Source: a virus
Taxonomy: Duplodnaviria; Caudoviricetes
IMG/VR virus record: IMGVR_UViG_3300022848_000005
DNA length: 64,000 nucleotides
Strand: one strand, 5' to 3'
Shown here: one piece after another, positions 16,327 to 56,903 of the stretch
Layout: each line of letters opens with the position of its first letter
Numbering within the stretch: the first letter of the stretch is position 1
Translations under genes and position numbers: made by a program
The notes under the pieces: model-generated
Told to the model about the DNA's origin: nothing
Databases searched by the model: none
Seen by the model: the letters and a program-made list of their open reading frames with translations, nothing else

Positions 16327-16341
16327 TATTTAATATAAATA
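16327..16341. promoter_or_regulatory. Back-to-back late promoter cores
   Basis: TATTTA 16327-16332 (minus, 6 nt before GTG 16320) and TATAAATA 16334-16341 (plus, 5 nt before ATG 16347). Confidence 0.6.
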
Positions 16342-16346
16342 CTATA

Positions 16347-17093
16347 ATGAGAGCATATCAATTTTTAACAGAAGGTCAAGGTGGATTAGCATACGAGGCG
16401 ACCGTATATGCCGCAATGCGAGCCGCTAAGATTAACGGTTTAGATTTAGGTGACAAGCCCACAGCAGGCTTTAGTAATCAAGGTTATGGTGATATCGAAG
16501 CAACATATAACGGTAAGCCTTTTAACATTGAAATCAAAGCCAGTGCATTCGATCAGATGGGAGGAACAAGTTTCCATTACAACATGGCTGGACAACAGTT
16601 AATTCCTGTAGGTCAGATAGAGCCTGATGAATTAGATATGTTGTTACAAGCCGCACAGACAAAAGCAGGCGATATAGATAACTTTCTTAAAGCCGCACAA
16701 GAATATGAAAATAATCCTAATATAACGGGGTTTCCTATTAGGGTCACTAAAGATACTAGAGAGAAACTAATAGCAGATGGCTTGCAAAAAGCAATAGCCA
16801 GTAATATTAGTGCTAAGTCTAGTTTTATTATAAAGCACTACAATAAAAAACAAGTGTATTATATACAAGTTGGTGGTTCTGGGCTATTTTACATGGGCAA
16901 GAATCCCCTTAAGTTGCCAGTACCAGAGCTACAAGGCGACATTAATATCGAATTAAGAGTAGGCTACGGTGGGTCAGGTGGTAAGCCCACAGTAACTGCT
17001 GGTATTAGACTGCAGGGTAGACTAAGAACTGAAAACGTTTCTAGTTTTACATTAGACGATCCAGGCAGTATCCAAGCATTATTCATGCAATAA
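16347..17093 (+). CDS. PD-(D/E)XK restriction-endonuclease-like protein with capsid-targeting-like N-terminus
   Basis: GLAYEATV, GYGDIEA, NIEIKAS; N-terminus MRAYQFLTE. Confidence 0.55.
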   Translation: MRAYQFLTEGQGGLAYEATVYAAMRAAKINGLDLGDKPTAGFSNQGYGDIEATYNGKPFNIEIKASAFDQMGGTSFHYNMAGQQLIPVGQIEPDELDMLLQAAQTKAGDIDNFLKAAQEYENNPNITGFPIRVTKDTREKLIADGLQKAIASNISAKSSFIIKHYNKKQVYYIQVGGSGLFYMGKNPLKLPVPELQGDINIELRVGYGGSGGKPTVTAGIRLQGRLRTENVSSFTLDDPGSIQALFMQ

Positions 17094-34237: not shown

Positions 34238-34607
34238 GTTTTCGTACTAGTGTTATTGCCCTACGTTTTGTTCGTTTTAAACTTAGGTTTTTAAGACTCA
34301 ACTGAGGACCATACTTAATAACAACGTCTTTGCTGTTAAACGTTTTAAGGAATACCTTAAATACTTTCCAGTCGTTTTTTAAAAACACATTAATAGGCAT
34401 TAATCTATTAGATTCCCACCACCAGGAATCTGCCAGTTCTAAGAATTGTAGACGTTCTTCAGGGGACTTTAACGCAGAATAATCATATAGCGTGGTAATA
34501 ATTTCATCGTAATTTTGTATTATGCCGATGTAATCGTTGCCTCCATAGACAACATAACTCAAAAAAGGATATTTGTCTAAGAGTTGATGGAATTTGTTGT
34601 CTGTCAC
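34227..34607 (-). CDS. Hypothetical protein
   Basis: ORF track (to 34637); GTG 34607 is the likelier start. Confidence 0.65.
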   Translation of the reverse strand: MTDNKFHQLLDKYPFLSYVVYGGNDYIGIIQNYDEIITTLYDYSALKSPEERLQFLELADSWWWESNRLMPINVFLKNDWKVFKVFLKTFNSKDVVIKYGPQLSLKNLSLKRTKRRAITLVRKPTQ

Positions 34608-40250: not shown

Positions 40251-40503
40251 CGATAGTTTTGAGATAATATATAGAGAATTAGTGATATTTGAATCTCCAG
40301 ATGGCGGACAAACGGTCTACGAACGTAGTCCAGGTCAAATTGCACGTACTCTTGTGGGTAGACGAGACACAATACCATCATGGTATATAGATGTACGAGG
40401 GTTTAATCAGCTAATGCACGAGGCAAAGGATAATGTTACCTTACAGGATGCTCTATTGCAATTAAAAACATTGTGGGAATTAACAAAGAAAGACGACAGT
40501 TAA
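40243..40503 (+). CDS. Hypothetical protein
   Basis: FESPDGGQTVYER; coupled ORF. Confidence 0.6.
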   Translation: MNNDSFEIIYRELVIFESPDGGQTVYERSPGQIARTLVGRRDTIPSWYIDVRGFNQLMHEAKDNVTLQDALLQLKTLWELTKKDDS

Positions 40504-41081
40504 TGCATTTATTAGAAAACTTTAATTACATTCAAAGAACAGCAAAACATGCCGCTGAATCGATCGCAAACAGAACTCGTATTGCATCGTGGGCATGGCG
40601 TATAGAAAACGTGTTGCCAGATGATATTATAGTTGACATAAGAGACTTTATGGCGGCAAATCAGAAGTGGGAGACTGAGCAATTAGAATTTGATATACCA
40701 AGACGTGCAGTACACTGGGATCAGGTATCAACTAGTCCATATAGACGTATGCATTATGCTTTTCAACAACTAAGCCCAGTAATATCGGAAGCAATAGGAC
40801 ACCAGGTAGACTTTCAACATTGTAACATGTGGGAGGATGGTACAGAATATATAATTCCACCACATGTAGACAATGATAGTATTAGGGTAGCCATACAAGT
40901 TTATCTTAACGATGCAGATGAGGATTGTGGTACTTCAATATATTCTAGTCAAAACACAGAAATATATAAGTTTCCTTTCATTTCGAACACAGGATACATC
41001 ATGCACAATACTCCAACTAGTTGGCACGGTATGATGACGCCAGGAAATGTTAGGCGTAGTTTATACGCAAACTATCGATAA
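40503..41081 (+). CDS. 2OG-Fe(II) oxygenase
   Basis: PHVDND (HxD), QVYLN, WHG, RRSL. Confidence 0.8.
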   Translation: MHLLENFNYIQRTAKHAAESIANRTRIASWAWRIENVLPDDIIVDIRDFMAANQKWETEQLEFDIPRRAVHWDQVSTSPYRRMHYAFQQLSPVISEAIGHQVDFQHCNMWEDGTEYIIPPHVDNDSIRVAIQVYLNDADEDCGTSIYSSQNTEIYKFPFISNTGYIMHNTPTSWHGMMTPGNVRRSLYANYR

Positions 41082-41955: not shown

Positions 41956-41963
41956 TATAAATA
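41956..41963 (+). promoter_or_regulatory. T4-type late promoter TATAAATA heading the 42-46 kb block
   Basis: Exact TATAAATA followed by a GGAG RBS. Confidence 0.7.
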
Positions 41964-41984: not shown

Positions 41985-42233
41985 GTGCAAAAGAAAACAA
42001 GAAGCCTATTAGATGAATTAGATATCTTTGTTTCACAAAGAGATAATAATGTTCTAATAGAGAACAGAGCCCACAATGTTATTCTAAGTGCGATAAACTT
42101 GCTACAGCACATAAAAGAAACTTATGACTCAGAGACTGCCGCAAACTTAGAAAAACGTTTGCTAAACAGCATACGCACCGGGGAACCAGAAAAGTTTACC
42201 AGGGGTATAAGGAGAGCCAAACGTGAAGGTTAA
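41985..42233 (+). CDS. Hypothetical late protein
   Basis: GTG start after GGAG. Confidence 0.7.
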   Translation: MQKKTRSLLDELDIFVSQRDNNVLIENRAHNVILSAINLLQHIKETYDSETAANLEKRLLNSIRTGEPEKFTRGIRRAKREG

Positions 42234-42492
42234 CGAGGTTGTTACAGAAGGCTGGAAAGATCTAGCATCACAGTTTGCTGGCGGACTTGCTGGAAAATCC
42301 GCTGACACTGTTAATTATGAAAAACAGAAAGCAGGAACAGAAAATGCAGAAAAAGAAAGAATACAAAAAGCGGCTAGAGAAAAAGGCATGTCAGTGCCAC
42401 AATACCTAGATTGGCTTAAAAAACAAGCAACAGCACAGGGTAGTAGTATTAGTCTTGACACTAATATTTCTGCCGCAAAAAAGGCGCATTAA
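42223..42492 (+). CDS. Putative internal head protein
   Basis: N-terminus MKVNEVVTE; AGGLAGKSA shared with the next ORF. Confidence 0.55.
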   Translation: MKVNEVVTEGWKDLASQFAGGLAGKSADTVNYEKQKAGTENAEKERIQKAAREKGMSVPQYLDWLKKQATAQGSSISLDTNISAAKKAH

Positions 42493-43082
42493 TGAAAGTT
42501 AAAGAATTATTTGAGGCAGGGTTGTGGGCACAAATCGCAGGTGGTTTGGCAGGCAAAAGTGCTGGGCAAATTGATCGTGAAGAGCGATCCTATACAAAAC
42601 AACAAAAAGCAAACCAAACTGCACAACAGTCAGTAACTAATACGCCTGTACAACAAAAAGCAAACCAAACTGCACAACAGTCTCCTGCACAACTTAATGC
42701 AAATTTAGATGCTAAAATAGCGTATGCAAAGTCTAGAGGCTGGATTGGATCGAGGCCTACTAATCAGGATAAAGCATATCTTGACAGTGTGGATGTTGAT
42801 ATAGATCCAAACAGATTTAACAACGTTGATCCTAAAACATTTTTTATACCACACCAACCTCTTCATGTAAAATCCGCCCTGGACGAATTTTCTGTATCAA
42901 CAGTTGAACTTAACAGGGCGTTGGGATTTAAGCATCAAGAAGAATTTAAAGGATACTCTACTATAACACTTACACCAGCAGGTTGGTACTCTGTAAACAG
43001 ACAAGCATATATTAACCCTAACAGTAAAGCACAGACTGTGATTGACATGTTCTATAATAGAAGCAAGGGCGGAACACGATGA
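42492..43082 (+). CDS. Putative internal head protein
   Basis: N-terminus MKVKELFE; AGGLAGKSA. Confidence 0.55.
   Translation: MKVKELFEAGLWAQIAGGLAGKSAGQIDREERSYTKQQKANQTAQQSVTNTPVQQKANQTAQQSPAQLNANLDAKIAYAKSRGWIGSRPTNQDKAYLDSVDVDIDPNRFNNVDPKTFFIPHQPLHVKSALDEFSVSTVELNRALGFKHQEEFKGYSTITLTPAGWYSVNRQAYINPNSKAQTVIDMFYNRSKGGTR
42599..42682 (+). repeat. 33-nt exact direct repeat, 51-nt period (QQKANQTAQQS x2)
   Basis: Copies at 42599 and 42650. Confidence 0.9.
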
Positions 43083-43777
43083 TATCAGAAGGTGGTAAAG
43101 CAATTCCTTCAGCACTGCCAGTTACACTTAAGAACTTTGATGCTGTTAAGAAGAACTTACAAAAGGCGTTACCACTTGGTATAGACATGTACGCTATTGG
43201 TTCAGCAGGCAAGAAAGAAGTTAGCAGTGACGTTGATGTTCTTATTGATGCCGAACAGTTACTAGACATATTTCCGTTAGATGACTTAAAACTAGCTAGA
43301 CAAGCATTGGAAAAACATTTCCAAAACATGGGGCTAGAAGCAAAACGCACTGGTGTTAGTATACACGTTGGCGTACCTAACGGTGAAGGCGGTGTGGCAC
43401 AAGTAGACTTAATGGCAGTTAATAATGCACAAGCGGCACAGCCATTGCATACACATGATTATACTGATCCCAACATGAAAGGTGGGACACTACATGCTAT
43501 GTGGGCAGACCTAGCAAACATGAGTGCGACACCTGAAGCAGAAAGTTTAATGATGAGTCCATACAAAGGACTAGTTAACAGGGAAACTAAGGAATTGGTC
43601 TCCAACAACAAAGATGAAATAGCAAAGATTATTATTGGTCCCAGTGCCACAGCAGACGACATGGGCAATCCCACAAAGTTACTAAAGGCATTGGAGCCCT
43701 ATCCTAAAAAGTACGACGCAATTAAAAACAAATACATGGCAACAGAGTGGAATCAAAAATGGCAGAACCTACAGTAG
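43079..43777 (+). CDS. Pol-beta superfamily nucleotidyltransferase
   Basis: IGSAGKKEVSSDVDV (GS...DxD) plus a third Asp in QVDLM. Confidence 0.75.
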   Translation: MISEGGKAIPSALPVTLKNFDAVKKNLQKALPLGIDMYAIGSAGKKEVSSDVDVLIDAEQLLDIFPLDDLKLARQALEKHFQNMGLEAKRTGVSIHVGVPNGEGGVAQVDLMAVNNAQAAQPLHTHDYTDPNMKGGTLHAMWADLANMSATPEAESLMMSPYKGLVNRETKELVSNNKDEIAKIIIGPSATADDMGNPTKLLKALEPYPKKYDAIKNKYMATEWNQKWQNLQ

Positions 43778-44874
43778 GCAGAAAGTATCAACACATTGAA
43801 GATCTGGTATTCACTAACGGCAGTCGTGGTGGACTACATGCTGTTGGGCGTCTTAAAGACATGCAAGAGTCCGGCGGTATAGAAATAAAGTGGGACGGAA
43901 TGCCTGTAGTGTACTGGGGAGAAGTTCACGGTAAGTTTACGGTTCTGATGAAGAATGCTCTTGCATACCTTAAGCGTGGTGTGAGAGAGGTTGGTGCAGG
44001 TATCCCTACACTGGCAACAGGACCGCAGGATGTAACAGACTTCGTAGCAGGTACAGGTAAGATTAAACCAGAACAACAAGATGCTAGACAGGCACTTGCT
44101 AAAGACATGGGTGCATTATGGCCTTACTTACGTAACGCAAGTCCTAAAAAGGGACTAGTGGAAGGTGGGTTATTGTTCCATCCAGGAAAGCCTGCTGTGT
44201 TAAACAAAGCAACAAACGAATACGAGTTCCAACCTAATGTAACAAAGTTTCATATTCCAGCAGACAGCAATTTAGGCAAGCGTATTGCTACTGCAACAAT
44301 CATGGTAGCGATTACTGGATACCAAGAAGACATAATGTCGCCTGAAGGTCGTCTGGATAATGTAGAGAAGTTAAGCACACCGGATGTCATTGTACAAGGC
44401 ACAGCGTATACTGAAGAAAAACCTAAACTTGACGACAAAGGGTTAGGTATTGTGGAACGTTATATTAGCAGTAATGCCAGTAAAATAGATGACTTTATTG
44501 GTGGCCAGTCAGGATTAAAAAGACCAGGCGATGTGTTATATAAGTTCTACAATCAGTCGCTTAGAATACCAGGTGCAAAGAAAGGTTTTACAGACTGGGT
44601 ACAAAATAACTTAAGTGCTGAGCAAGCACAAAAAGTTTTAAACCATCCTGGATTAGACGCTACGCTTAACGCAGTTGAAATGATAACAGGACAAAAGAAT
44701 CTGGTATTACAGCAGTTAGGGTCAGCAACACACGGTGATATCAGACAGACTAAACCAGAAGGTTATGTGCAAGCTCATCCAGGTAAAGAGTTTAAGGCTG
44801 ACTTACCGGGACAGTTTATTAAAATGATTGATCAACCGACTTGGACGCCTAACAGAGGCTTTAAAGATAAGTAG
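43759..44874 (+). CDS. Ligase/capping-enzyme-like covalent NTase (DUF6267-like)
   Basis: Motif I IKWDG; QHIEDL; C-terminal FIKMID. Confidence 0.6.
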   Translation: MAEPTVGRKYQHIEDLVFTNGSRGGLHAVGRLKDMQESGGIEIKWDGMPVVYWGEVHGKFTVLMKNALAYLKRGVREVGAGIPTLATGPQDVTDFVAGTGKIKPEQQDARQALAKDMGALWPYLRNASPKKGLVEGGLLFHPGKPAVLNKATNEYEFQPNVTKFHIPADSNLGKRIATATIMVAITGYQEDIMSPEGRLDNVEKLSTPDVIVQGTAYTEEKPKLDDKGLGIVERYISSNASKIDDFIGGQSGLKRPGDVLYKFYNQSLRIPGAKKGFTDWVQNNLSAEQAQKVLNHPGLDATLNAVEMITGQKNLVLQQLGSATHGDIRQTKPEGYVQAHPGKEFKADLPGQFIKMIDQPTWTPNRGFKDK

Positions 44875-44878
44875 TACT

Positions 44879-45469
44879 ATGAGAGCAAAAGAAATATTAA
44901 GAGAAGCACCAGAACAACGTGTAGCCTTTAGTTGGGGTAGGTTTCAGCCACCACACTTAGGACACGCAGAGGTGTTTAAGAAACTGGAGTCAGTAGGAAA
45001 CTATGGTTTCTGGATAGGCACGGGACAAACAACCGATCCTAAAAAGAATCCATTGCAGTATGCAGACAAAGTTGCTATACTGAAACAGATGTTTCCTGGG
45101 CACAGCGACAACATATTATCTGACCCCAGTATTAAGACAGTATACAATGCTATTGTAGCAATATATAACAAATACGATCCCAAAGAAGCAGAGAACATTA
45201 CTTTAGTTTTTGTTGGTGATCCAGAAAGAATTAACGACTTCGTTGGTAGTTTTAAAAAGTTTAATGGTGTTGAAGCACGTCATGGTTATTACAAGTTTAA
45301 AGATGTAACCGGATTTGCTAACACCGATAAAGGTGATGTGAGAGCAACAGATGTTCGAGGTGCAGTGCAGGCTAAGGACATGACAAAATTTCAACAACTT
45401 ACTGGTTTAACTGGTGAGTTGGCTCAGACAGTTTTTAACAAGGTAGCAAAGGGAATGGGCGTTGTTTGA
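44879..45469 (+). CDS. HxGH nucleotidyltransferase (cytidylyl/NMN-adenylyltransferase-like)
   Basis: GRFQPPHLGH; C-terminal RATDVR; start reassigned to ATG 44879 (MRAKEILRE), 5 nt after TAAGTA. Confidence 0.85.
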   Translation: MRAKEILREAPEQRVAFSWGRFQPPHLGHAEVFKKLESVGNYGFWIGTGQTTDPKKNPLQYADKVAILKQMFPGHSDNILSDPSIKTVYNAIVAIYNKYDPKEAENITLVFVGDPERINDFVGSFKKFNGVEARHGYYKFKDVTGFANTDKGDVRATDVRGAVQAKDMTKFQQLTGLTGELAQTVFNKVAKGMGVV

Positions 45470-46019
45470 CTTTATTCAAGAATTAAATGAAAGCAGGATT
45501 TTTAGGTACGAACACGACTTCGAGGGGATGTCTGCTCGTGACCTAGGTCATCTACTGTATCAAATTGTTATGATGTTGGAAATTATTAGACATTATGACA
45601 AAAACTGGGTTAAACAGTATGCTAAGAAGACATATCAGTTTGGGGGGTTTCCAGGAATGAAGGCTGCCCAAACTGATATGTACAATCTTATAAGTGTTGT
45701 TAATAACCAAGACAAATATGACACGTATTTAAAGACTGACAAGTCAGTGTATGTTCCTGACTTTGGCATCAAACGTTATTTGTTAGACATTATTAACGAT
45801 AATAGACACATCACCAGAGACAGAGCACTATTCACTAAACTAGAAGACACATTAAAAGTACAGGATAGTGCTCTTAAAAACATCAGACGCTTAGTAAGTT
45901 ACTGGGACAACTACAGTGACGCACAAAAGAAAACAACAGTAGTAAATCTTAGACAGAACGTTCGTTCTGACACTCCTTATATTGACGTATACTGGTCAAA
46001 ATTTAAAGAACTAGCATAA
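45462..46019 (+). CDS. Hypothetical, putative head-associated protein
   Basis: N-terminus MFDFIQELNE. Confidence 0.6.
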   Translation: MFDFIQELNESRIFRYEHDFEGMSARDLGHLLYQIVMMLEIIRHYDKNWVKQYAKKTYQFGGFPGMKAAQTDMYNLISVVNNQDKYDTYLKTDKSVYVPDFGIKRYLLDIINDNRHITRDRALFTKLEDTLKVQDSALKNIRRLVSYWDNYSDAQKKTTVVNLRQNVRSDTPYIDVYWSKFKELA

Positions 46020-46070
46020 ATAATAGTAAGTTAGCGAACAGGCTAATAATAAAATTTAAGGAGTTTTAAA

Positions 46071-46529
46071 ATGGCAGACGTAACAAGAGTACATGGTAAC
46101 GCACATGGTGTGGTTCATCAGGACAGAGGCCTCTCTGGTAGTGGAGCATTAAGTGGTGACGAGTTAGTAGTTAACATTGGTAGAAGTGCTAAGTTCTTTG
46201 GAATCGTTATTTACAACGCATCTGGATCAGGCGGCGCAGGTAATGTCGATCTACAAAACGAATTAGACGCTGGCGAATCAGTTGAAGCAATTCTTAAAGC
46301 AGTTGCGGCATCTACCGTTTCTAGCGTACAATACGGTGGTGAGATTTTAGCATATCAGGTACAAGACGATGCTAACGGTCAAATCAGCGTTATGGTTGCT
46401 GGTTCAAATTGGACAGGCGCAACATTGCAAACAGCAATTCGTGCATTAGGCGCAACAGTTGGTGGCAATTCAAAAGACGTAACAGGCACACTCGTAACAG
46501 ATACAGGCATGAAGTTAGCACTATCATAA
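46071..46529 (+). CDS. Putative abundant virion protein, paralog A
   Basis: TAAATA 46017-46022, AAGGAG RBS, Gly/Ala-rich; MADVTRVHG. Confidence 0.6.
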   Translation: MADVTRVHGNAHGVVHQDRGLSGSGALSGDELVVNIGRSAKFFGIVIYNASGSGGAGNVDLQNELDAGESVEAILKAVAASTVSSVQYGGEILAYQVQDDANGQISVMVAGSNWTGATLQTAIRALGATVGGNSKDVTGTLVTDTGMKLALS

Positions 46530-46548
46530 TTTAGAGTTTTAGTAACTT

Positions 46549-46582
46549 AAAAAAGGGCGCATATTATTTGCGCCTTTTTTTT
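46549..46582. terminator. Bidirectional-type intrinsic terminator
   Basis: A run-GGGCGCA-loop-TGCGCC-T run. Confidence 0.8.
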
Positions 46583-46590
46583 ATAACCAG

Positions 46591-46598
46591 TATAAATA
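46591..46598 (+). promoter_or_regulatory. T4-type late promoter TATAAATA
   Basis: Exact motif upstream of AAGGAG and ATG 46629. Confidence 0.75.
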
Positions 46599-46628
46599 CT
46601 ACAAATACATTTAATTAAGGAGTGACAA

Positions 46629-47060
46629 ATGGCAGATTTAACAAGAGTACACGGTAGCCCATCAGGTAACGTGTCATATGACAGATCAGTAGCAAACGTT
46701 GGTAACATCTCAGCAGACGAACTAGTAGATGTTGTAGGTCGTAAGTTAGACTTTTTCAAAATTGTTATTCAAAACGGTTCTAGTACTAACCAAGACTTGC
46801 GTTCAGAAATGGGACCTAACGAGTGTGTAGAAAAAGTTTTACAAATTATCCAAAACTACACAGACGGTACTAACGAAGGAACTGCAACTCTCGTAGCATA
46901 TCAGGTAGAAGGCGACGACACAGGACAAATCAGTGTTGCAGTTGAAGGTTCTAGCTGGACAGCGTCAGCATTGCAGGCGTCCATTCGTGCTACTACAACA
47001 TTGAACTCAATCAATGTTACAGGTACAGACGTTACAGCACCTGGGTTAGATTTAGCATAA
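46629..47060 (+). CDS. Putative abundant virion protein, paralog B
   Basis: MADLTRVHG; shares DLxxE, AYQV..DD.GQISV.V.GS.WT with paralog A. Confidence 0.6.
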   Translation: MADLTRVHGSPSGNVSYDRSVANVGNISADELVDVVGRKLDFFKIVIQNGSSTNQDLRSEMGPNECVEKVLQIIQNYTDGTNEGTATLVAYQVEGDDTGQISVAVEGSSWTASALQASIRATTTLNSINVTGTDVTAPGLDLA

Positions 47061-47112: not shown

Positions 47113-47529
47113 ATGCACTGTCAAAGTTTACATAGAGATTTAAGAATACAGCAAGTGCCCTTAACACAATTAAGTTCACTTTTTATACACCCCAACGAAC
47201 GTTTTAAATGGAAGGTTCTCCCAACGATGCGGGATCAAGGTATGTATTACCCATTAGCAGTGTGTAAGATAACAACGGAGTTGTTTAGTAAACAATTCTG
47301 GGGTAAACTTAAAGTAGATCCTGTAGTAAACGAGGATAATTTAGTCTGGGCAATTAAAATGGGAGCTAATAGATATGATGCCGCCCTTCATCTTGGATAT
47401 ACATCTATAGATGTAATTATACATCCCAATCTAAATGATTGTATTACCTGGGACCGTTACTTTAAGTATGTTAATCCTTTATTCAATAAAGATCCTGAGC
47501 CTTACCAGGCAAAGTTTACATATGAGTAA
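47113..47529 (+). CDS. ParB/Srx-like domain protein
   Basis: YPLAV...GANRYDAALHLGYTSIDV resembles ParB G.HR..AA..LG...I.V. Confidence 0.45.
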   Translation: MHCQSLHRDLRIQQVPLTQLSSLFIHPNERFKWKVLPTMRDQGMYYPLAVCKITTELFSKQFWGKLKVDPVVNEDNLVWAIKMGANRYDAALHLGYTSIDVIIHPNLNDCITWDRYFKYVNPLFNKDPEPYQAKFTYE

Positions 47530-48028
47530 AATACACGGTCATAGTGCAGGCAGTGTGGAAGGCAGAGGCAGTTGTGTAATTGATTGTTATACACTAGTGG
47601 ATATGACTAGAACAGGCGTAGTAGCATACTACAAAGAAGGCATGCCTATGTTCAATGATGATGCAGATCAACTAATTAATGACGAGAAGTCCTGGATTAG
47701 AAGCCGTAATCAACAACGTAACTACGAAACCTGCATACAAGTAATTAGTTTAAGGGCCCAACCTGTGTATCTGGAAGATCCTAAACGATTGCGTAAACAG
47801 GACATGTCGCTCTATAATTTTACTGATATCACAGGCACCCACGACATCTGGCATTTTAGTTTTAGTCCAGAACAGCCGGATGTATACAGAATAGGTGACG
47901 ATCCTGTTGCCGCTCTTAATAATGATACACACAATATACCTATAATAACTGGTTTACACGAAACAGCAGTAGTAGAAATACCCATACTACATATAGGTAT
48001 AAATATATATTACAAACTCAGGTGGTAA
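47522..48028 (+). CDS. Hypothetical protein
   Basis: Start reassigned to ATG 47522. Confidence 0.6.
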   Translation: MSKIHGHSAGSVEGRGSCVIDCYTLVDMTRTGVVAYYKEGMPMFNDDADQLINDEKSWIRSRNQQRNYETCIQVISLRAQPVYLEDPKRLRKQDMSLYNFTDITGTHDIWHFSFSPEQPDVYRIGDDPVAALNNDTHNIPIITGLHETAVVEIPILHIGINIYYKLRW

Positions 48029-53464: not shown

Positions 53465-55759
53465 ATGAGCAAAATTTTAGTAACGAAACGAGAAGGTCAC
53501 AAAGAACCTCTAAACATAGAAAAAATGCATAAAGTTGTCATGTGGGCAACCGACGGAATTACAGGCGTAAGTGCCAGCGAAGTGGAAATAAAATCAAGCC
53601 TACAGTTTTATGATGGTATTAAGACATCAGATGTCCAGGAAACACTTATTAAAAGTGCCGCTGATCTTATTTCAGAGGAGAACCCTAACTACCAGTATGT
53701 TGCTGGTAGGCTAATAAACTATCATATCAGAAAACAAGTTTATAACGATTACGATCCCTGGGACCTAAAGCGTATTGTGGAAGCAAACGTGAAACGTGGC
53801 TATTATGATAGTGAATTGTTAGAGGTATACTCAACTGAAGAATGGAAAAAGTTAAACAGTTACATTAATCACGAGCGAGATGAAAACTTTACCTATGTTG
53901 CTATGGAACAGTTTAGGGGAAAATATCTTGTACAGAATCGTGTAACTAAAGATTTGTACGAAACTCCACAAGTGTGTTACATGTTAATTGCGGCAACCCT
54001 GTTCCAAAACTATCCTAAAGAAACAAGATTACAATGGGTACATGATTATTACGATGCTATTAGTACCCACTTGATTAGTTTACCAACTCCTGTTATGGCA
54101 GGTGTACGCACACCGCAAAAACAATTCAGCAGTTGTGTATTAATCGAAACAGATGACAGTCTAGATAGTATTAATGCAACAGCGAGTGCTATTGTAAAAT
54201 ATGTTTCGCAAAAGGCAGGTATTGGCATCGGCGCAGGTCGCATCCGTGCTATTAACTCACCAGTGCGTAATGGTGATGCGTCCCACACAGGTGTTATCCC
54301 GTTTCTTAAATTATTCCAGAGTGCAGTGAAGTCATGTAGTCAGGGCGGGGTTCGTGGTGGAGCGGCAACAATATACTATCCATTATGGCACCTAGAAGTA
54401 GAAGATTTGTTAGTATTAAAGAACAACAAAGGCACAGAAGATAACAGAGTACGCCACATGGATTATGGGGTTCAATTTAACAAATTAATGTACGAAAGAC
54501 TTATCCAAGGGGGAGATATTACCCTGTTTTCGCCCAACGATGTACCGGAATTGTACGAAGCATTCTATGTTAACGCCGACAAGTTTAAAGAGTTGTATGA
54601 GCAAGCAGAGCGTAAAACAAGTATACGCAAAAAGAAAGTTAAAGCAATTGATCTGTTTACTGCCTTTATGCAAGAACGCAAGGATACAGGGCGTGTCTAC
54701 TTAATGAACGTTGACCATGCTAATACACACTCACCGTTTAAACCAGATGTAGCACCTATTAGGCAGAGTAACTTATGTTGCGAAATTGACTTGCCTACTA
54801 AACCTCTTAAAAGTTTTGAGGATCCAGACGGTAGAATAGCATTATGTACACTAAGTGCAATTAACTGGGGTGCTATTAAGACACCTGAAGATTTTGAGAA
54901 ACCCTGTAGGTTAGCAGTACGTGGATTAGATGCCTTACTGAGCTATCAGGGATATCCAGTAAAGGCGGCAGAAGAAGCAACCCGAGAATACAGACCACTA
55001 GGTGTGGGTATTATTAATCTTGCTTACTGGTTAGCAAAGAACGACACGAGCTACAGTGATCCTCGAGCATTGGAATTAGTAGATCAATATGCAGAAGCAT
55101 GGAGTTACTATTTAATTAGAGCAAGCATGGAACTTGCTAAAGAATTTGGTCGATGTGATGGGTTCCAAAACTTAAAGTATGCAGATGGCATACTACCAAT
55201 CGATACTTACAAACGTGATGTGGATGAACTTGTTAAGCCCAAAAAACGACAGTTTGATTGGGACTACTTGCGCAAAGAGATTAAAGAACATGGTATACGT
55301 AATGCAACCCTAATGGCATTGATGCCTGCAGAAACGAGTGCTCAGATTAGTAATGCTACTAATGGTATTGAGCCACCACGTAGTTTTGTTAGCGTTAAGC
55401 AGAGCAAGGACGGGGTACTTAAGCAGGTAGTGCCTGAGTATCGTCGACTTAAGAATAAATATGAATTGCTGTGGGATCAAAGAGATCCAACTGGTTACAT
55501 AAAAATCATGGCAGTATTACAGAAGTACATCGATCAAGGTATTAGTGTTAACACCAGTTACAATCCACAGTGGTATGAAGATGAAAAGATACCAATGAGT
55601 GATATGCTAAAACATCTTATGATGTTTTATAAGTACGGTGGCAAGCAGTTGTATTACTTCAACACCTATGATGGTCAAGGTGAAATAGATGTTAATAAAC
55701 TAGAAGAACTACAACCTGGTGAGTTAGATGACGAAGCCTGCGAAAGTTGCGTAATATAA
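53465..55759 (+). CDS. nrdA: Class Ia ribonucleotide reductase alpha subunit
   Basis: ATP cone VTKREG, QFSSC, SQGGVRGG, SNLCCEI, C-terminal CESC. Confidence 0.97.
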   Translation: MSKILVTKREGHKEPLNIEKMHKVVMWATDGITGVSASEVEIKSSLQFYDGIKTSDVQETLIKSAADLISEENPNYQYVAGRLINYHIRKQVYNDYDPWDLKRIVEANVKRGYYDSELLEVYSTEEWKKLNSYINHERDENFTYVAMEQFRGKYLVQNRVTKDLYETPQVCYMLIAATLFQNYPKETRLQWVHDYYDAISTHLISLPTPVMAGVRTPQKQFSSCVLIETDDSLDSINATASAIVKYVSQKAGIGIGAGRIRAINSPVRNGDASHTGVIPFLKLFQSAVKSCSQGGVRGGAATIYYPLWHLEVEDLLVLKNNKGTEDNRVRHMDYGVQFNKLMYERLIQGGDITLFSPNDVPELYEAFYVNADKFKELYEQAERKTSIRKKKVKAIDLFTAFMQERKDTGRVYLMNVDHANTHSPFKPDVAPIRQSNLCCEIDLPTKPLKSFEDPDGRIALCTLSAINWGAIKTPEDFEKPCRLAVRGLDALLSYQGYPVKAAEEATREYRPLGVGIINLAYWLAKNDTSYSDPRALELVDQYAEAWSYYLIRASMELAKEFGRCDGFQNLKYADGILPIDTYKRDVDELVKPKKRQFDWDYLRKEIKEHGIRNATLMALMPAETSAQISNATNGIEPPRSFVSVKQSKDGVLKQVVPEYRRLKNKYELLWDQRDPTGYIKIMAVLQKYIDQGISVNTSYNPQWYEDEKIPMSDMLKHLMMFYKYGGKQLYYFNTYDGQGEIDVNKLEELQPGELDDEACESCVI

Positions 55760-55772
55760 CCCGAGTGTAATT

Positions 55773-56903
55773 ATGAGCGTTTTTAATATACAGAAAAAAG
55801 ATAACCACCTTAAGGCTTTGGCATTCTTAGACCCCAACGGTGGCAGTAGTGTGCAACGATATGACACCGTAAAATATAGACAGTTTGAAAAGTTAACTGA
55901 TAAGCAGTTAGGGTTCTTCTGGCGCCCAGAAGAAGTTGATGTAATGCGTGACTCCAAAGACTTTAAAGACTTAACATCACACGAGCAACACATCTTTACC
56001 AGTAATCTTAAGAGGCAAATTTTATTAGACAGTGTTCAAGGACGCTCTCCTAATTTAGCATTCCTGCCACTATGCACAATTCCAGAACTTGAAACCTGGA
56101 TCCAGACATGGGCGTTTAACGAAACAATTCACAGCCGTAGTTACACACATATTATTCGCAATGTGTACAGCGATCCTGCGAAAGTGTTTGATAGTATAAC
56201 TGACATTAAGGAGATTGTGACCTGCGCAGAAGCAATTACAGGTTACTACGATGACCTTATTAACTACTCACAGTTTTATGGTTTACTGGGAGAAGGAAAC
56301 CATATTGTTAATGGTAAGAAATATGACATTAACAAGTATGAACTTAAGAAGAAACTATGGTTAGCCATTAACAGTGTTAATGCGCTGGAAGGCATACGCT
56401 TCTATGTATCGTTTGCATGCAGTTGGGCATTTGCTGAACTTAAAAAGATGGAAGGTAATGCTAAAATTATTAAGTTTATCGCCCGTGATGAGAATGTCCA
56501 CTTGGCAAGTACACAGACTTTACTTAAGATATTGCCTACAGATGACAAAGACTTTGCTAAAATTAAAAAAGAGTGTGAGCATCTAGTAACAGATATTTTT
56601 GTTAGTGCAGTGGAACAAGAGACTTCCTGGGCAGAATATTTGTTTAAAGACGGATCAATGATAGGTCTTAATAAACAACTACTAACAGAATATGTTGAGT
56701 GGTTGGCAAACAAACGCATGACTTCTATTGGTGTATATTCACCATACAAAGTAGGACAAAGTAATCCTTTACCTTGGACACAAAAATGGATTGCAGGAGC
56801 AGAAGTACAAGTAGCACCGCAAGAAGTTGAACTGAGTAGTTATGTTATTGGTGGTACTAAACAAGACGTTGACGAAGATACCTTTAAGGGCATAACTCTG
56901 TGA
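55773..56903 (+). CDS. nrdB: Class Ia ribonucleotide reductase beta subunit
   Basis: FFWRPEE, LDSVQGR, ETIHSRSY, LEGIRFY, DENVH. Confidence 0.97.
   Translation: MSVFNIQKKDNHLKALAFLDPNGGSSVQRYDTVKYRQFEKLTDKQLGFFWRPEEVDVMRDSKDFKDLTSHEQHIFTSNLKRQILLDSVQGRSPNLAFLPLCTIPELETWIQTWAFNETIHSRSYTHIIRNVYSDPAKVFDSITDIKEIVTCAEAITGYYDDLINYSQFYGLLGEGNHIVNGKKYDINKYELKKKLWLAINSVNALEGIRFYVSFACSWAFAELKKMEGNAKIIKFIARDENVHLASTQTLLKILPTDDKDFAKIKKECEHLVTDIFVSAVEQETSWAEYLFKDGSMIGLNKQLLTEYVEWLANKRMTSIGVYSPYKVGQSNPLPWTQKWIAGAEVQVAPQEVELSSYVIGGTKQDVDEDTFKGITL

Follow-up and report, generated by a model that had tools for sequence, protein, structure and literature searches.

The window analyzed here is 64,000 nucleotides (nt) long. 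It comes from an IMG/VR virus record (IMGVR_UViG_3300022848_000005) of 289 kb with an estimated completeness of 80%, in which it spans bases 197450-261449. Three contiguous open reading frames (ORFs) occupy positions 43079-45469 on the + strand, exactly as delimited in a sequence-only reading of this DNA, which had described them as three unrelated nucleotidyl-transfer folds in tandem. The source is a T4-related jumbo phage. Its nearest isolates by helicase similarity are PA5oct-like jumbo phages (49% identity) and Atu_ph07, and a prohead protease of the T4 gp21 type (PF03420, 93.8 bits) is among the proteins encoded by the record. A nucleotide search with positions 42000-47000 gave no match among isolated phages. 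In the following, PolX, LIG and CT denote ORF1-type, DUF6267 (ORF2-type) and HxGH cytidylyltransferase-like (ORF3-type) genes or domains, respectively. The main features of the three genes are:

43079..43777, + strand: ORF1, 232 amino acids, minimal family-X (PolX-like) nucleotidyltransferase with palm and thumb, without leader
43199..43243, + strand: ORF1 hG[GS] motif GSAGKK and first two catalytic carboxylates in DVDVL (D51, D53), invariant in 32 sequences
43400..43414, + strand: ORF1 third catalytic Asp in QVDLM (D110), invariant in 32 sequences
43747..44874, + strand: ORF2, DUF6267 (PF19782), ligase/capping-type covalent nucleotidyltransferase-like, without leader in this lineage
43789..43803, + strand: ORF2 family-specific invariant QHIED (H16, E18, D19), N-terminal to motif I
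43888..43899, + strand: ORF2 motif I-like KWDG (residues 48-51), candidate nucleotidyl-lysine K48
44758..44832, + strand: ORF2 motif IV-like EGYV (E338, G339) and motif V-like K359 in FIKMID
44879..45469, + strand: ORF3, 196 amino acids from ATG 44879, HxGH (cytidylyltransferase-like) nucleotidyltransferase (PF01467)
44879..44908, + strand: ORF3 N-terminal leader MRAKEILREA, T4 capsid-targeting-like, with L-x-E prohead-protease site
44948..44965, + strand: ORF3 PPHLGH, [H/T]xGH ATP-binding motif, conserved in 14 aligned family members
45041-45055, + strand: ORF3 KKNPL, family-specific
45341..45358, + strand: ORF3 RATDVR, ISxTxxR-type second nucleotide-binding motif, conserved in 14 relatives

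ORF2 can start at GTG 43747 (375 amino acids, MESKMAEPTVGRKYQ) or at ATG 43759 (371 amino acids, MAEPTV). The ATG is the more likely start and gives a 19-nt overlap with the end of ORF1. The overlapping stop and start codons of ORF1 and ORF2 suggest that the two genes may be translationally coupled. We also considered a programmed -1 frameshift between them and rejected it, as the overlap has no X_XXY_YYZ slippery site and the closest relatives, at 84-94% identity, have separate genes as well. ATG 44879 of ORF3 directly follows the ORF2 stop. It is the likelier start, since the alternative TTG 44828 would overlap ORF2 by 47 nt and the closest ORF3 homologue (P0391) is 196 amino acids long.

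Linkage and fusion of the three genes

Of 80 IMG/VR loci with a DUF6267 gene, 71 have the PolX-like gene immediately upstream on the same strand and 43 have an HxGH gene immediately downstream. Both partners flank DUF6267 in 34 of the 80, with a constant gene order. All three genes are found in 33/33 loci with at least 45% identity, and none of the 50 DUF6267 loci with adequate flanks lacks both partners. The sequence-only reading had proposed co-occurrence and fusion as a check and had named unlinked genes in relatives as evidence against a module. We clearly found the opposite: the linkage is far beyond chance, the synteny is strict, and double and triple fusions exist.

DUF6267 relatives of 617-634 amino acids are N-terminal fusions with an ORF1-type domain. 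Fusions account for 47 of 150 DUF6267-family representatives at 50% identity; 10 of them are triple fusions, which occur in two domain orders. The architectures are:

LIG alone: 101 of 150 representatives
PolX-LIG: 20 of 150 representatives
LIG-CT: 13 of 150 representatives
PolX-LIG-CT: 6 of 150 representatives
LIG-PolX: 4 of 150 representatives
CT-PolX-LIG: 4 of 150 representatives

Relatives also keep the catalytic residues, which are invariant for ORF1 and ORF2, and the motifs of ORF3. Gene order and fusions support the prediction that the PolX-like, DUF6267 and HxGH genes form one functional unit.

In T4-like cyanophages, DUF6267 and CT are an adjacent pair that follows uvsX, gp41 and mazG. 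BLAST and profile searches found no PolX-like domain in the DUF6267-flanking genes of S-CAM9, S-SZBM1 and S-SCSM1. Since no PolX-like neighbor is detectable, the cyanophages appear to have the LIG and CT pair only. The gene upstream of the NMNAT-like (nicotinamide mononucleotide adenylyltransferase-like) gene in S-SCSM1 is not DUF6267. In S-CRM01 (L005 3971-8117), DUF6267 is followed by a small leader-bearing ORF (MNFSEFLEA) that is not a cytidylyltransferase, and then by an 821-amino acid Ser/Thr kinase with the same type of leader (MISFDQFLSE); such kinases have been reported in cyanophage virions.

Two long contigs encode, downstream of DUF6267, proteins of 427 and 513 amino acids that have no Pfam match, contain GWGRGMGHKGH and are similar to both ORF3 and the cyanophage enzymes. 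The C-terminal extensions of these HxGH proteins (L009 7145-8686 and L011 7857-9140; 427-513 amino acids) match two proteins of cyanophage virions, S-SZBM1_139 (E 1e-7) and S-SCSM1_93 (E 0.0045). ORF3 in the window has only 196 amino acids, so that the part corresponding to the extension is either missing or encoded separately.

A search for extra domains in the long fusion proteins gave one HAD-like match only. It lies in residues 212-345 of a relative of 1144 amino acids (P0293; PF11019 at 28 bits, weak PF00702), in which the order is CT, HAD-like hydrolase, PolX and LIG. This is the only such case, and the domain is possibly an end-healing phosphatase. Another fusion partner was unexpected for a ligase-like protein: in an ESM Atlas cluster of 65 viral proteins, DUF6267 is fused to a Cu/Zn superoxide dismutase domain (PF00080).

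Predicted folds and active sites

ORF1 has no family match in Pfam, PHROG or NCBIfam, and tblastn against phages gave none either; PF01909 matches weakly in one fused relative. Sequence searches of the PDB with ORF1, ORF2 and the A2 profile returned chance-level matches only. The Pol-beta-type GS...DVD motif and third Asp that the sequence-only reading had pointed out are present, and among the 252 homologues that we collected, G41, S42, D51, D53 and D110 are invariant across the 32 compared.

The AlphaFold2 (AF2) model of ORF1 has a predicted local distance difference test (pLDDT) score of 91. Foldseek against the PDB returned Pol lambda, mu and beta together with Thermus PolX (TthPolX) at E ~3e-6. 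In an exhaustive VIA-align search the top 8 matches are all family X (Z 9.6-10.3, 159-177 residues aligned), and their alignments span model residues 1-208, covering palm and thumb as one unit. The Pol X of African swine fever virus (ASFV) aligns over 159 of its 176 residues with a Z of 10.0. In BFVD, the first named matches, after uncharacterized phage homologues, are giant-virus proteins annotated as DNA polymerase family X. Terminal uridylyltransferases (TUTases), CD-NTases, poly(A) polymerases and CCA-adding enzymes, on the other hand, align to ORF1 over only ~95 palm residues in VIA-align. Because these other nucleotidyltransferases match the palm only, we regard ORF1 as a minimal PolX-like protein rather than a generic Pol-beta nucleotidyltransferase. 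At 232 amino acids it is too short to accommodate an 8-kDa or a fingers domain, which is also the case for ASFV Pol X. On the basis of the model, ORF1 is a minimal family-X-like polymerase, with templated dNTP incorporation on gapped DNA as its putative activity. The Pol-beta fold recognized by the sequence-only reading is thus retained, while its assignment to generic transfer of nucleoside monophosphate (NMP) to RNA ends or proteins is replaced by the palm and thumb match to family-X DNA polymerases. This match favors gap filling and sealing over tRNA 3' addition or protein nucleotidylation.

ORF2 matches PF19782 (DUF6267) at E 2e-16 (60.6 bits, cut-off 27), mainly over its N-terminal 55 residues, and cyanophage DUF6267 members match the A2 profile over their full length (E 1e-42 to 1e-47). 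At the sequence level we found no membership in PF01068, PF01653 or PF09414, PF19782 being the sole match. The KWDG motif I that had been noticed in ORF2 is present, and K48, D50 and G51 are invariant in 63 sequences down to 24% identity. The complete set of invariant residues in these 63 relatives (24-87% identity) is H16, E18, D19, K48, D50, G51, G58, K317, E338, G339 and K359, and W49 is at least 90% conserved in the same sequences. G136 (GGLLF) is near-invariant, and G136, E338-G339 and K359 follow the canonical motif order; motifs III-V were assigned by eye from order and residue type, not by residue-level superposition. Speculatively, the QHIED motif may orient the leaving group, either pyrophosphate or nicotinamide mononucleotide (NMN).

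The AF2 model of ORF2 (pLDDT 93.9) ends after motif V without an OB domain and has a helical domain inserted before motif IV, between motifs IIIa and IV. In the ESM Atlas it matches a DUF6267 cluster (TM 0.81), and the nearest named family is PF09414 at 0.78. The top 27 rows in VIA-align are nearly all RNA or DNA ligases (147-199 residues), although their Z of 4.7-6.6 is below the tool's confidence zone. The top Foldseek matches in the PDB are the Rnl3, Trl1 and Rnl1 ligases, which are weak (E at least 0.07), and one AFDB match is named 'RNA ligase domain-containing protein' (E 3.7e-5). We read DUF6267 as a predicted divergent member of the ligase/capping superfamily; the consistency of the matches is persuasive, and the scores alone are not decisive. 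The nearest solved folds, Rnl2, Rnl5, Trl1 and T4 Pnkp-Rnl1, likewise have no OB domain and possess an extra helical domain. Unlike these RNA ligases, ORF2 is not a PF09414 member, carries its helical insert between motifs IIIa and IV, and has the H-x-E-D motif. Its partner is PolX-like, not the kinase/phosphatase of T4 Pnkp-Rnl1.

The closeness of ORF2 to RNA ligases raises the alternative that the three genes serve RNA repair and counter anticodon nucleases or other defenses that cleave RNA. ORF2 would then be an RNA ligase, ORF1 a terminal or CCA-type rebuilder, and ORF3 an accessory. The best structural neighbors of ORF2 (NgrRnl, REL1, Trl1, T4 Rnl2 and Rnl3), the AFDB annotation, the Atlas value for PF09414 and the missing OB domain are in line with this, as is the HAD-like domain of one relative, since HAD-like is also the fold of the T4 Pnkp phosphatase. 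However, the Z values of RNA and DNA ligases are close enough to count as ties, ORF1 matches family X over palm and thumb while CCA-adding enzymes and TUTases match the palm only, and the loci show no conserved kinase, cyclic phosphodiesterase (CPDase) or Pnkp-type partner. We consider RNA repair unlikely.

ORF3 matches PF01467 (E 4e-8, 33.9 bits, cut-off 21) and the PHROG families phrog_3041 and phrog_395 ('cytidyltransferase'). The [H/T]xGH, KKNPL and (S/R)A(S/T)xxR motifs are conserved in its family. The best PDB match by sequence is MJ0541 NMNAT (1f9a, E 1e-4). Against the NMNAT models TIGR01527 and PRK01153 it scores ~25 bits, compared to cut-offs of 127-181, and only the N-terminal ~57 residues are matched. 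Thus the likeness to NMNAT proposed from GRFQPPHLGH is borne out by the conserved RATDVR and by the archaeal/NadM-type enzymes being closest, but not by the NMNAT equivalog score. ORF3 may work like an NMNAT, judging from its motifs; by score it is not a member. It shares GRFQPxHxGH, the NP(L/F) loop and the SxTxxR motif with archaeal/NadM NMNATs and phage NARP2-type enzymes. It differs from these NMNATs in its scores far below the family cut-offs, in having no Nampt partner present, in its capsid-targeting-like leader and in the long C-terminal extensions of its relatives, which are homologous to cyanophage virion proteins.

These features bear on a second alternative, in which supply or restoration of NAD+ to counter NAD-depleting defenses is the core function, with ORF3 making NAD+ and the other two proteins feeding or using the pathway. 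The NadM-type likeness agrees with it. Cyanophage papers label the homologues NMNAT and propose control of NAD at entry, and phage NAD+ reconstitution pathways are known (Osterman 2024, cited in PMC12801897). On the other hand, ORF3 scores far below the NMNAT cut-offs, we saw no Nampt/NadV, Nudix or Adps/Namat partner in the loci, PolX-like and ligase-like folds have no role in the known NAD+ pathways, and many loci retain PolX and LIG without CT. This alternative is very unlikely in our opinion.

Capsid-targeting-like leader, putative late expression and virion proteins

The T4 capsid-targeting sequence is MKTYQEFIAE. In T4 the targeting signal corresponds to residues 1-10 of IPIII, with gp21 cleavage following L/I-x-E (PMC9026906). 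ORF3 begins with a leader of this type, and the consensus leader in relatives is MKIRELLTEA. The strict motif is found in only six ORFs of the 289-kb genome, including ORF3 and the ORF at 16347-17093. The strict pattern occurs in 43/116 and 25/141 DUF6267-family members compared to 4/402 ORFs of this genome, and in 0.24/141 after shuffling. Standalone DUF6267 proteins have the consensus start MKIRELLTEAAA, with (L/I)-x-E within residues 5-14 in 98 of 124. Cyanophage CTs and the virion-reported S-CRM01 kinase bear the same kind of leader. The T4 internal proteins and Alt, otherwise unrelated, likewise begin with a ~10-residue leader that has (L/I)-x-E at its end, and a gp21-type protease is encoded as well. 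Unlike here, the T4 cargo consists of small basic anti-restriction proteins and an ADP-ribosyltransferase; the function of the leader in our case is predicted.

The sequence-only reading had given the capsid tag to two of the three proteins, which does not hold. Only ORF3 has the strict motif, and neither ORF1 (MISEGGK) nor ORF2 (MESKMAEPTVGRKYQ or MAEPTV) has it. ORF1 and ORF2 relatives at 59-65% carry the leader and those at 84-94% lack it; in the 59% relatives, MRIIELITEA precedes the same APTVGRKYQH. The EGGN at the start of ORF1 belongs to the domain, because internal copies have EGGN too. As only ORF3 has a leader, the 'pre-made and injected' property can be inferred for ORF3 only in this phage.

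The region upstream of ORF1 contains the following features:

41956..41963, + strand: T4-type late-promoter-like box TATAAATA, 22 nt before the gene that opens the + strand run (41985)
41985..42233, + strand: small conserved first gene of the block, 82 amino acids, N-terminus MQKKTRSLLDEL, PA5oct gp259 homologue
42223-42492 and 42492-43082, + strand: two small ORFs with leader-like N-termini (MKVNEVVTEG and MKVKELFEAG) and a common GGLAGKSA motif

The gene at 41985 matches PA5oct gp259 ('virion structural protein') with a phmmer E of 3.7e-17. In distant relatives, its homologues lie directly upstream of the PolX-like gene. TAAATA is present 14-35 nt upstream of these homologues in 32/32 relatives, compared to 3% background. 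Over the whole window TATAAATA is not enriched (7 found, 7.35 expected), so that only the conserved position counts. Late transcription, which had been proposed for the three genes, is therefore plausible from the conserved box upstream of the block, and receives nothing from the frequency of the box in the window. A scan for sigma70 promoters and terminators gave nothing above chance. The second of the small ORFs (42492-43082) overlaps the ORF1 start (ATGA), and neither has a family match.

The proposed placement in an ejected-protein block is supported by synteny with PA5oct, in which the helicase is followed by a series of genes for structural proteins detected by electrospray ionization tandem mass spectrometry (ESI-MS/MS). 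PA5oct gp262 matches the window gene at 34584, and gp250 matches that at 47435-48028 (E 1e-6). PA5oct gp253, detected in virions by mass spectrometry (MS), matches the PolX-like profile (E 3e-6). We did not rely on PA5oct gp256 as a DUF6267 protein, for which there is a weak partial match only (E 2e-4 to 1e-3). Two paralogues in the window, at 46071-46529 and 46629-47060, start with MADVTRVHG and MADLTRVHG. Such 'MAD...' genes follow the module in distant relatives and by eye resemble the MS-detected PA5oct gp251 and gp250.

CT homologues have been reported in the virion proteomes of S-SZBM1 (PMC9146016), S-SCSM1 (PMC9602691) and S-CREM2 (PMC10665884), and also in S-CBWM1 virions according to the citations in cyanophage proteome papers. 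In S-SZBM1 the leader-bearing CT was detected in virions and the leaderless DUF6267 was not. Presence in virions, which the sequence-only reading had asked for, is therefore found for homologues of ORF1 and ORF3, but not for DUF6267 in S-SZBM1.

These data also bear on a third alternative, a purely intracellular role in replication or maturation. DUF6267 would be the 'missing' DNA ligase of T4-like marine phages and PolX would fill primer gaps, while the virion detections would be carry-over and the leader would have another role. Cyanomyoviruses lack the gp30 ligase and mostly RNase H, and distant homologues have been considered possible (PMC2984593). Searches with PF01068, PF01653 and PF09414 detected no canonical ligase in the 289-kb record, which is ~80% complete and nevertheless encodes a primase, a helicase and ribonucleotide reductase. 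The position of the trio, beside primase and helicase here and of the LIG and CT pair beside uvsX, gp41 and mazG in cyanophages, would fit such a role, and so would the absence of the leader from ORF1, ORF2 and cyanophage DUF6267. It is at odds, however, with the late-type promoter kept in 32/32 relatives and with a leader that is ~100-fold enriched over shuffles and borne by most family members. PolX-like gp253 in PA5oct virions and CT in four independent virion proteomes also argue against it, and the HxGH partner is left unexplained. We think that an exclusively intracellular function is improbable.

A possible fill-and-seal module

We favor the reading that the three genes encode a late-made fill-and-seal polynucleotide module that is partly capsid-borne, with predicted activities, and give it a probability of about 45%. 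It is favored because of the pairing of PolX with a ligase, the ASFV precedent and the lack of a detectable canonical ligase. In this reading short gaps would be filled, or 3' ends extended, by ORF1, and the nick would be sealed by ORF2 through a Lys48-NMP intermediate. ORF3 would provide or restore a dinucleotide cofactor, for which NAD+ made from NMN and ATP is the simplest guess. The role of the HxGH protein is the weakest link, and regeneration of NAD+ for a NAD-using ligase is a guess prompted by the likeness to NMNAT. In the wider family, the T4-type leader would route members into the prohead, where the gp21 protease would remove it. Such routing implies that part of the kit, in this phage ORF3 only, could travel with the DNA into the next cell. 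The kit may act late in infection, repairing nicks and gaps before or during packaging, and/or at the start of the next infection, repairing damage or nuclease cuts before phage gene expression. The HAD-like phosphatase domain (end-healing type) added in one relative supports a module of this kind. A phage ligase is known to repair nuclease-made breaks as a counter-defense (bioRxiv 10.64898/2026.09.21.753257).

Several observations weigh against this reading. ORF3 falls far below the NMNAT equivalog cut-offs, and we know of no established role for HxGH enzymes in fill-and-seal repair. Many distant loci consist of PolX and LIG without a detectable CT. ORF2 resembles known structures only modestly, with Z values of up to 6.6 and E values no lower than 0.07 in Foldseek against the PDB; given the missing OB domain and RNA, not DNA, ligases as the closest solved folds, its substrate could be RNA. 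A canonical ligase could sit in the missing part of the record, which is only ~80% complete. ORF1 and ORF2 have no leader in this phage. Cyanophage DUF6267 has none either and is not among the S-SZBM1 virion proteins, and the authors of the proteome studies caution that non-structural virion proteins may be carry-over.

A fourth alternative is end modification, in which the enzymes would protect the ends of the injected genome from exonucleases by caps or tails (AppDNA, NppN caps, 3' tails), or nucleotidylate host proteins. In all three chemistries the acceptor of the NMP is a phosphate or a hydroxyl end. The ORF2 fold also occurs in capping enzymes (the vaccinia enzyme aligns at Z 4.5 in VIA-align), family X includes the template-independent terminal deoxynucleotidyltransferase (TdT), and a virion-borne location would put the enzymes at the DNA ends on entry. 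There is no specific evidence for it, though. Ligases outnumber capping enzymes among the ORF2 matches, and the pairing of PolX and ligase has a well-known fill-and-seal logic. We regard end modification as highly improbable.

The sequence-only reading had proposed an injected module for RNA or tRNA repair, NAD restoration or host-protein nucleotidylation. The single unit in a late block agrees with our analysis, and we favor DNA-type fill-and-seal instead of the proposed functions. RNA/tRNA repair and NAD+ restoration are possible, with no specific support. A more far-reaching version of the fill-and-seal reading holds that DUF6267 is a new polynucleotide ligase family that operates with PolX and an NMNAT-like enzyme in a cofactor-coupled, leader-loaded, injected repair system of T4-related marine and jumbo phages, acting before phage gene expression, and that it is also the missing cyanophage ligase. 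Taken as a whole, this version is rather doubtful.

The closest precedent is ASFV, which packages a minimal Pol X (O174L), a DNA ligase (NP419L) and an AP endonuclease (E296R) in its virion (PMC12172490). As in the phage module, a minimal palm and thumb Pol X is paired with a ligase and made late. The ASFV set is virion-carried to repair the genome before replication, whereas packaging of ORF1 and ORF2 here is hypothetical. ASFV also differs in being a eukaryotic virus, in its canonical ATP-dependent ligase with an OB domain and in having AP endonuclease as the third partner, and its genes are neither adjacent nor fused and have no capsid-targeting leader.

LigD of bacterial non-homologous end joining (NHEJ) combines polymerase, phosphoesterase and ligase in one polypeptide, with variable domain order, for end healing and sealing. 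It resembles the phage fusions in joining a repair polymerase to a ligase, and the LigD ligase domain aligns to ORF2 (1vs0, Z 4.8). Unlike the module, its polymerase is of the archaeo-eukaryotic primase type and its ligase contains an OB domain and the full set of canonical motifs; LigD also works with Ku and has no HxGH domain. The PhiKMV DNA ligase repairs nuclease-induced breaks and thereby mitigates CRISPR and restriction, the same benefit as we propose. In contrast to the module, that ligase is canonical and expressed in the cell, is not partnered by a polymerase or an HxGH enzyme, and is not linked to the virion.

None of the superfamilies involved is new, and cargo targeted to the capsid has precedents. 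The conserved and fused PolX-ligase-HxGH combination with its virion link was not found in the searchable literature, in keeping with the earlier statement that no function is established for this combination. If the favored reading is true, it would provide a function for the widespread DUF6267 and for the 'cytidylyltransferase' that recurs unexplained in cyanophage virions. It might explain how T4-like cyanophages do without the gp30 ligase (PMC2984593), a problem that has stood since 2005-2010, and DNA-repair enzymes would join the known phage capsid cargo. It would also parallel the packaged Pol X and ligase of ASFV and fit with phage ligases that blunt CRISPR and restriction. The natural fusions (PolX-LIG-CT and permutations) are ready single-chain constructs for biochemistry, and a compact polymerase-ligase enzyme could serve as a tool.

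The other genes that we located around the module are:

36093: primase
37118: radical-SAM protein
38880: DnaB-like helicase
40473-41081: 2OG-Fe(II)-like protein, with a weak 2OG-Fe(II) (2-oxoglutarate and Fe(II)-dependent) oxygenase Pfam match and a PHROG labelled 'minor coat protein'
50616: exonuclease
53465-56903: ribonucleotide reductase

In cyanophages, 2OG-Fe(II) oxygenase genes are at the same place beside gp41 as the gene at 40473-41081 in the window. A further copy of TATAAATA is located at 16334-16341, 6 nt before the ORF at 16347-17093 (248 amino acids), which has the strict leader MRAYQFLTEG.

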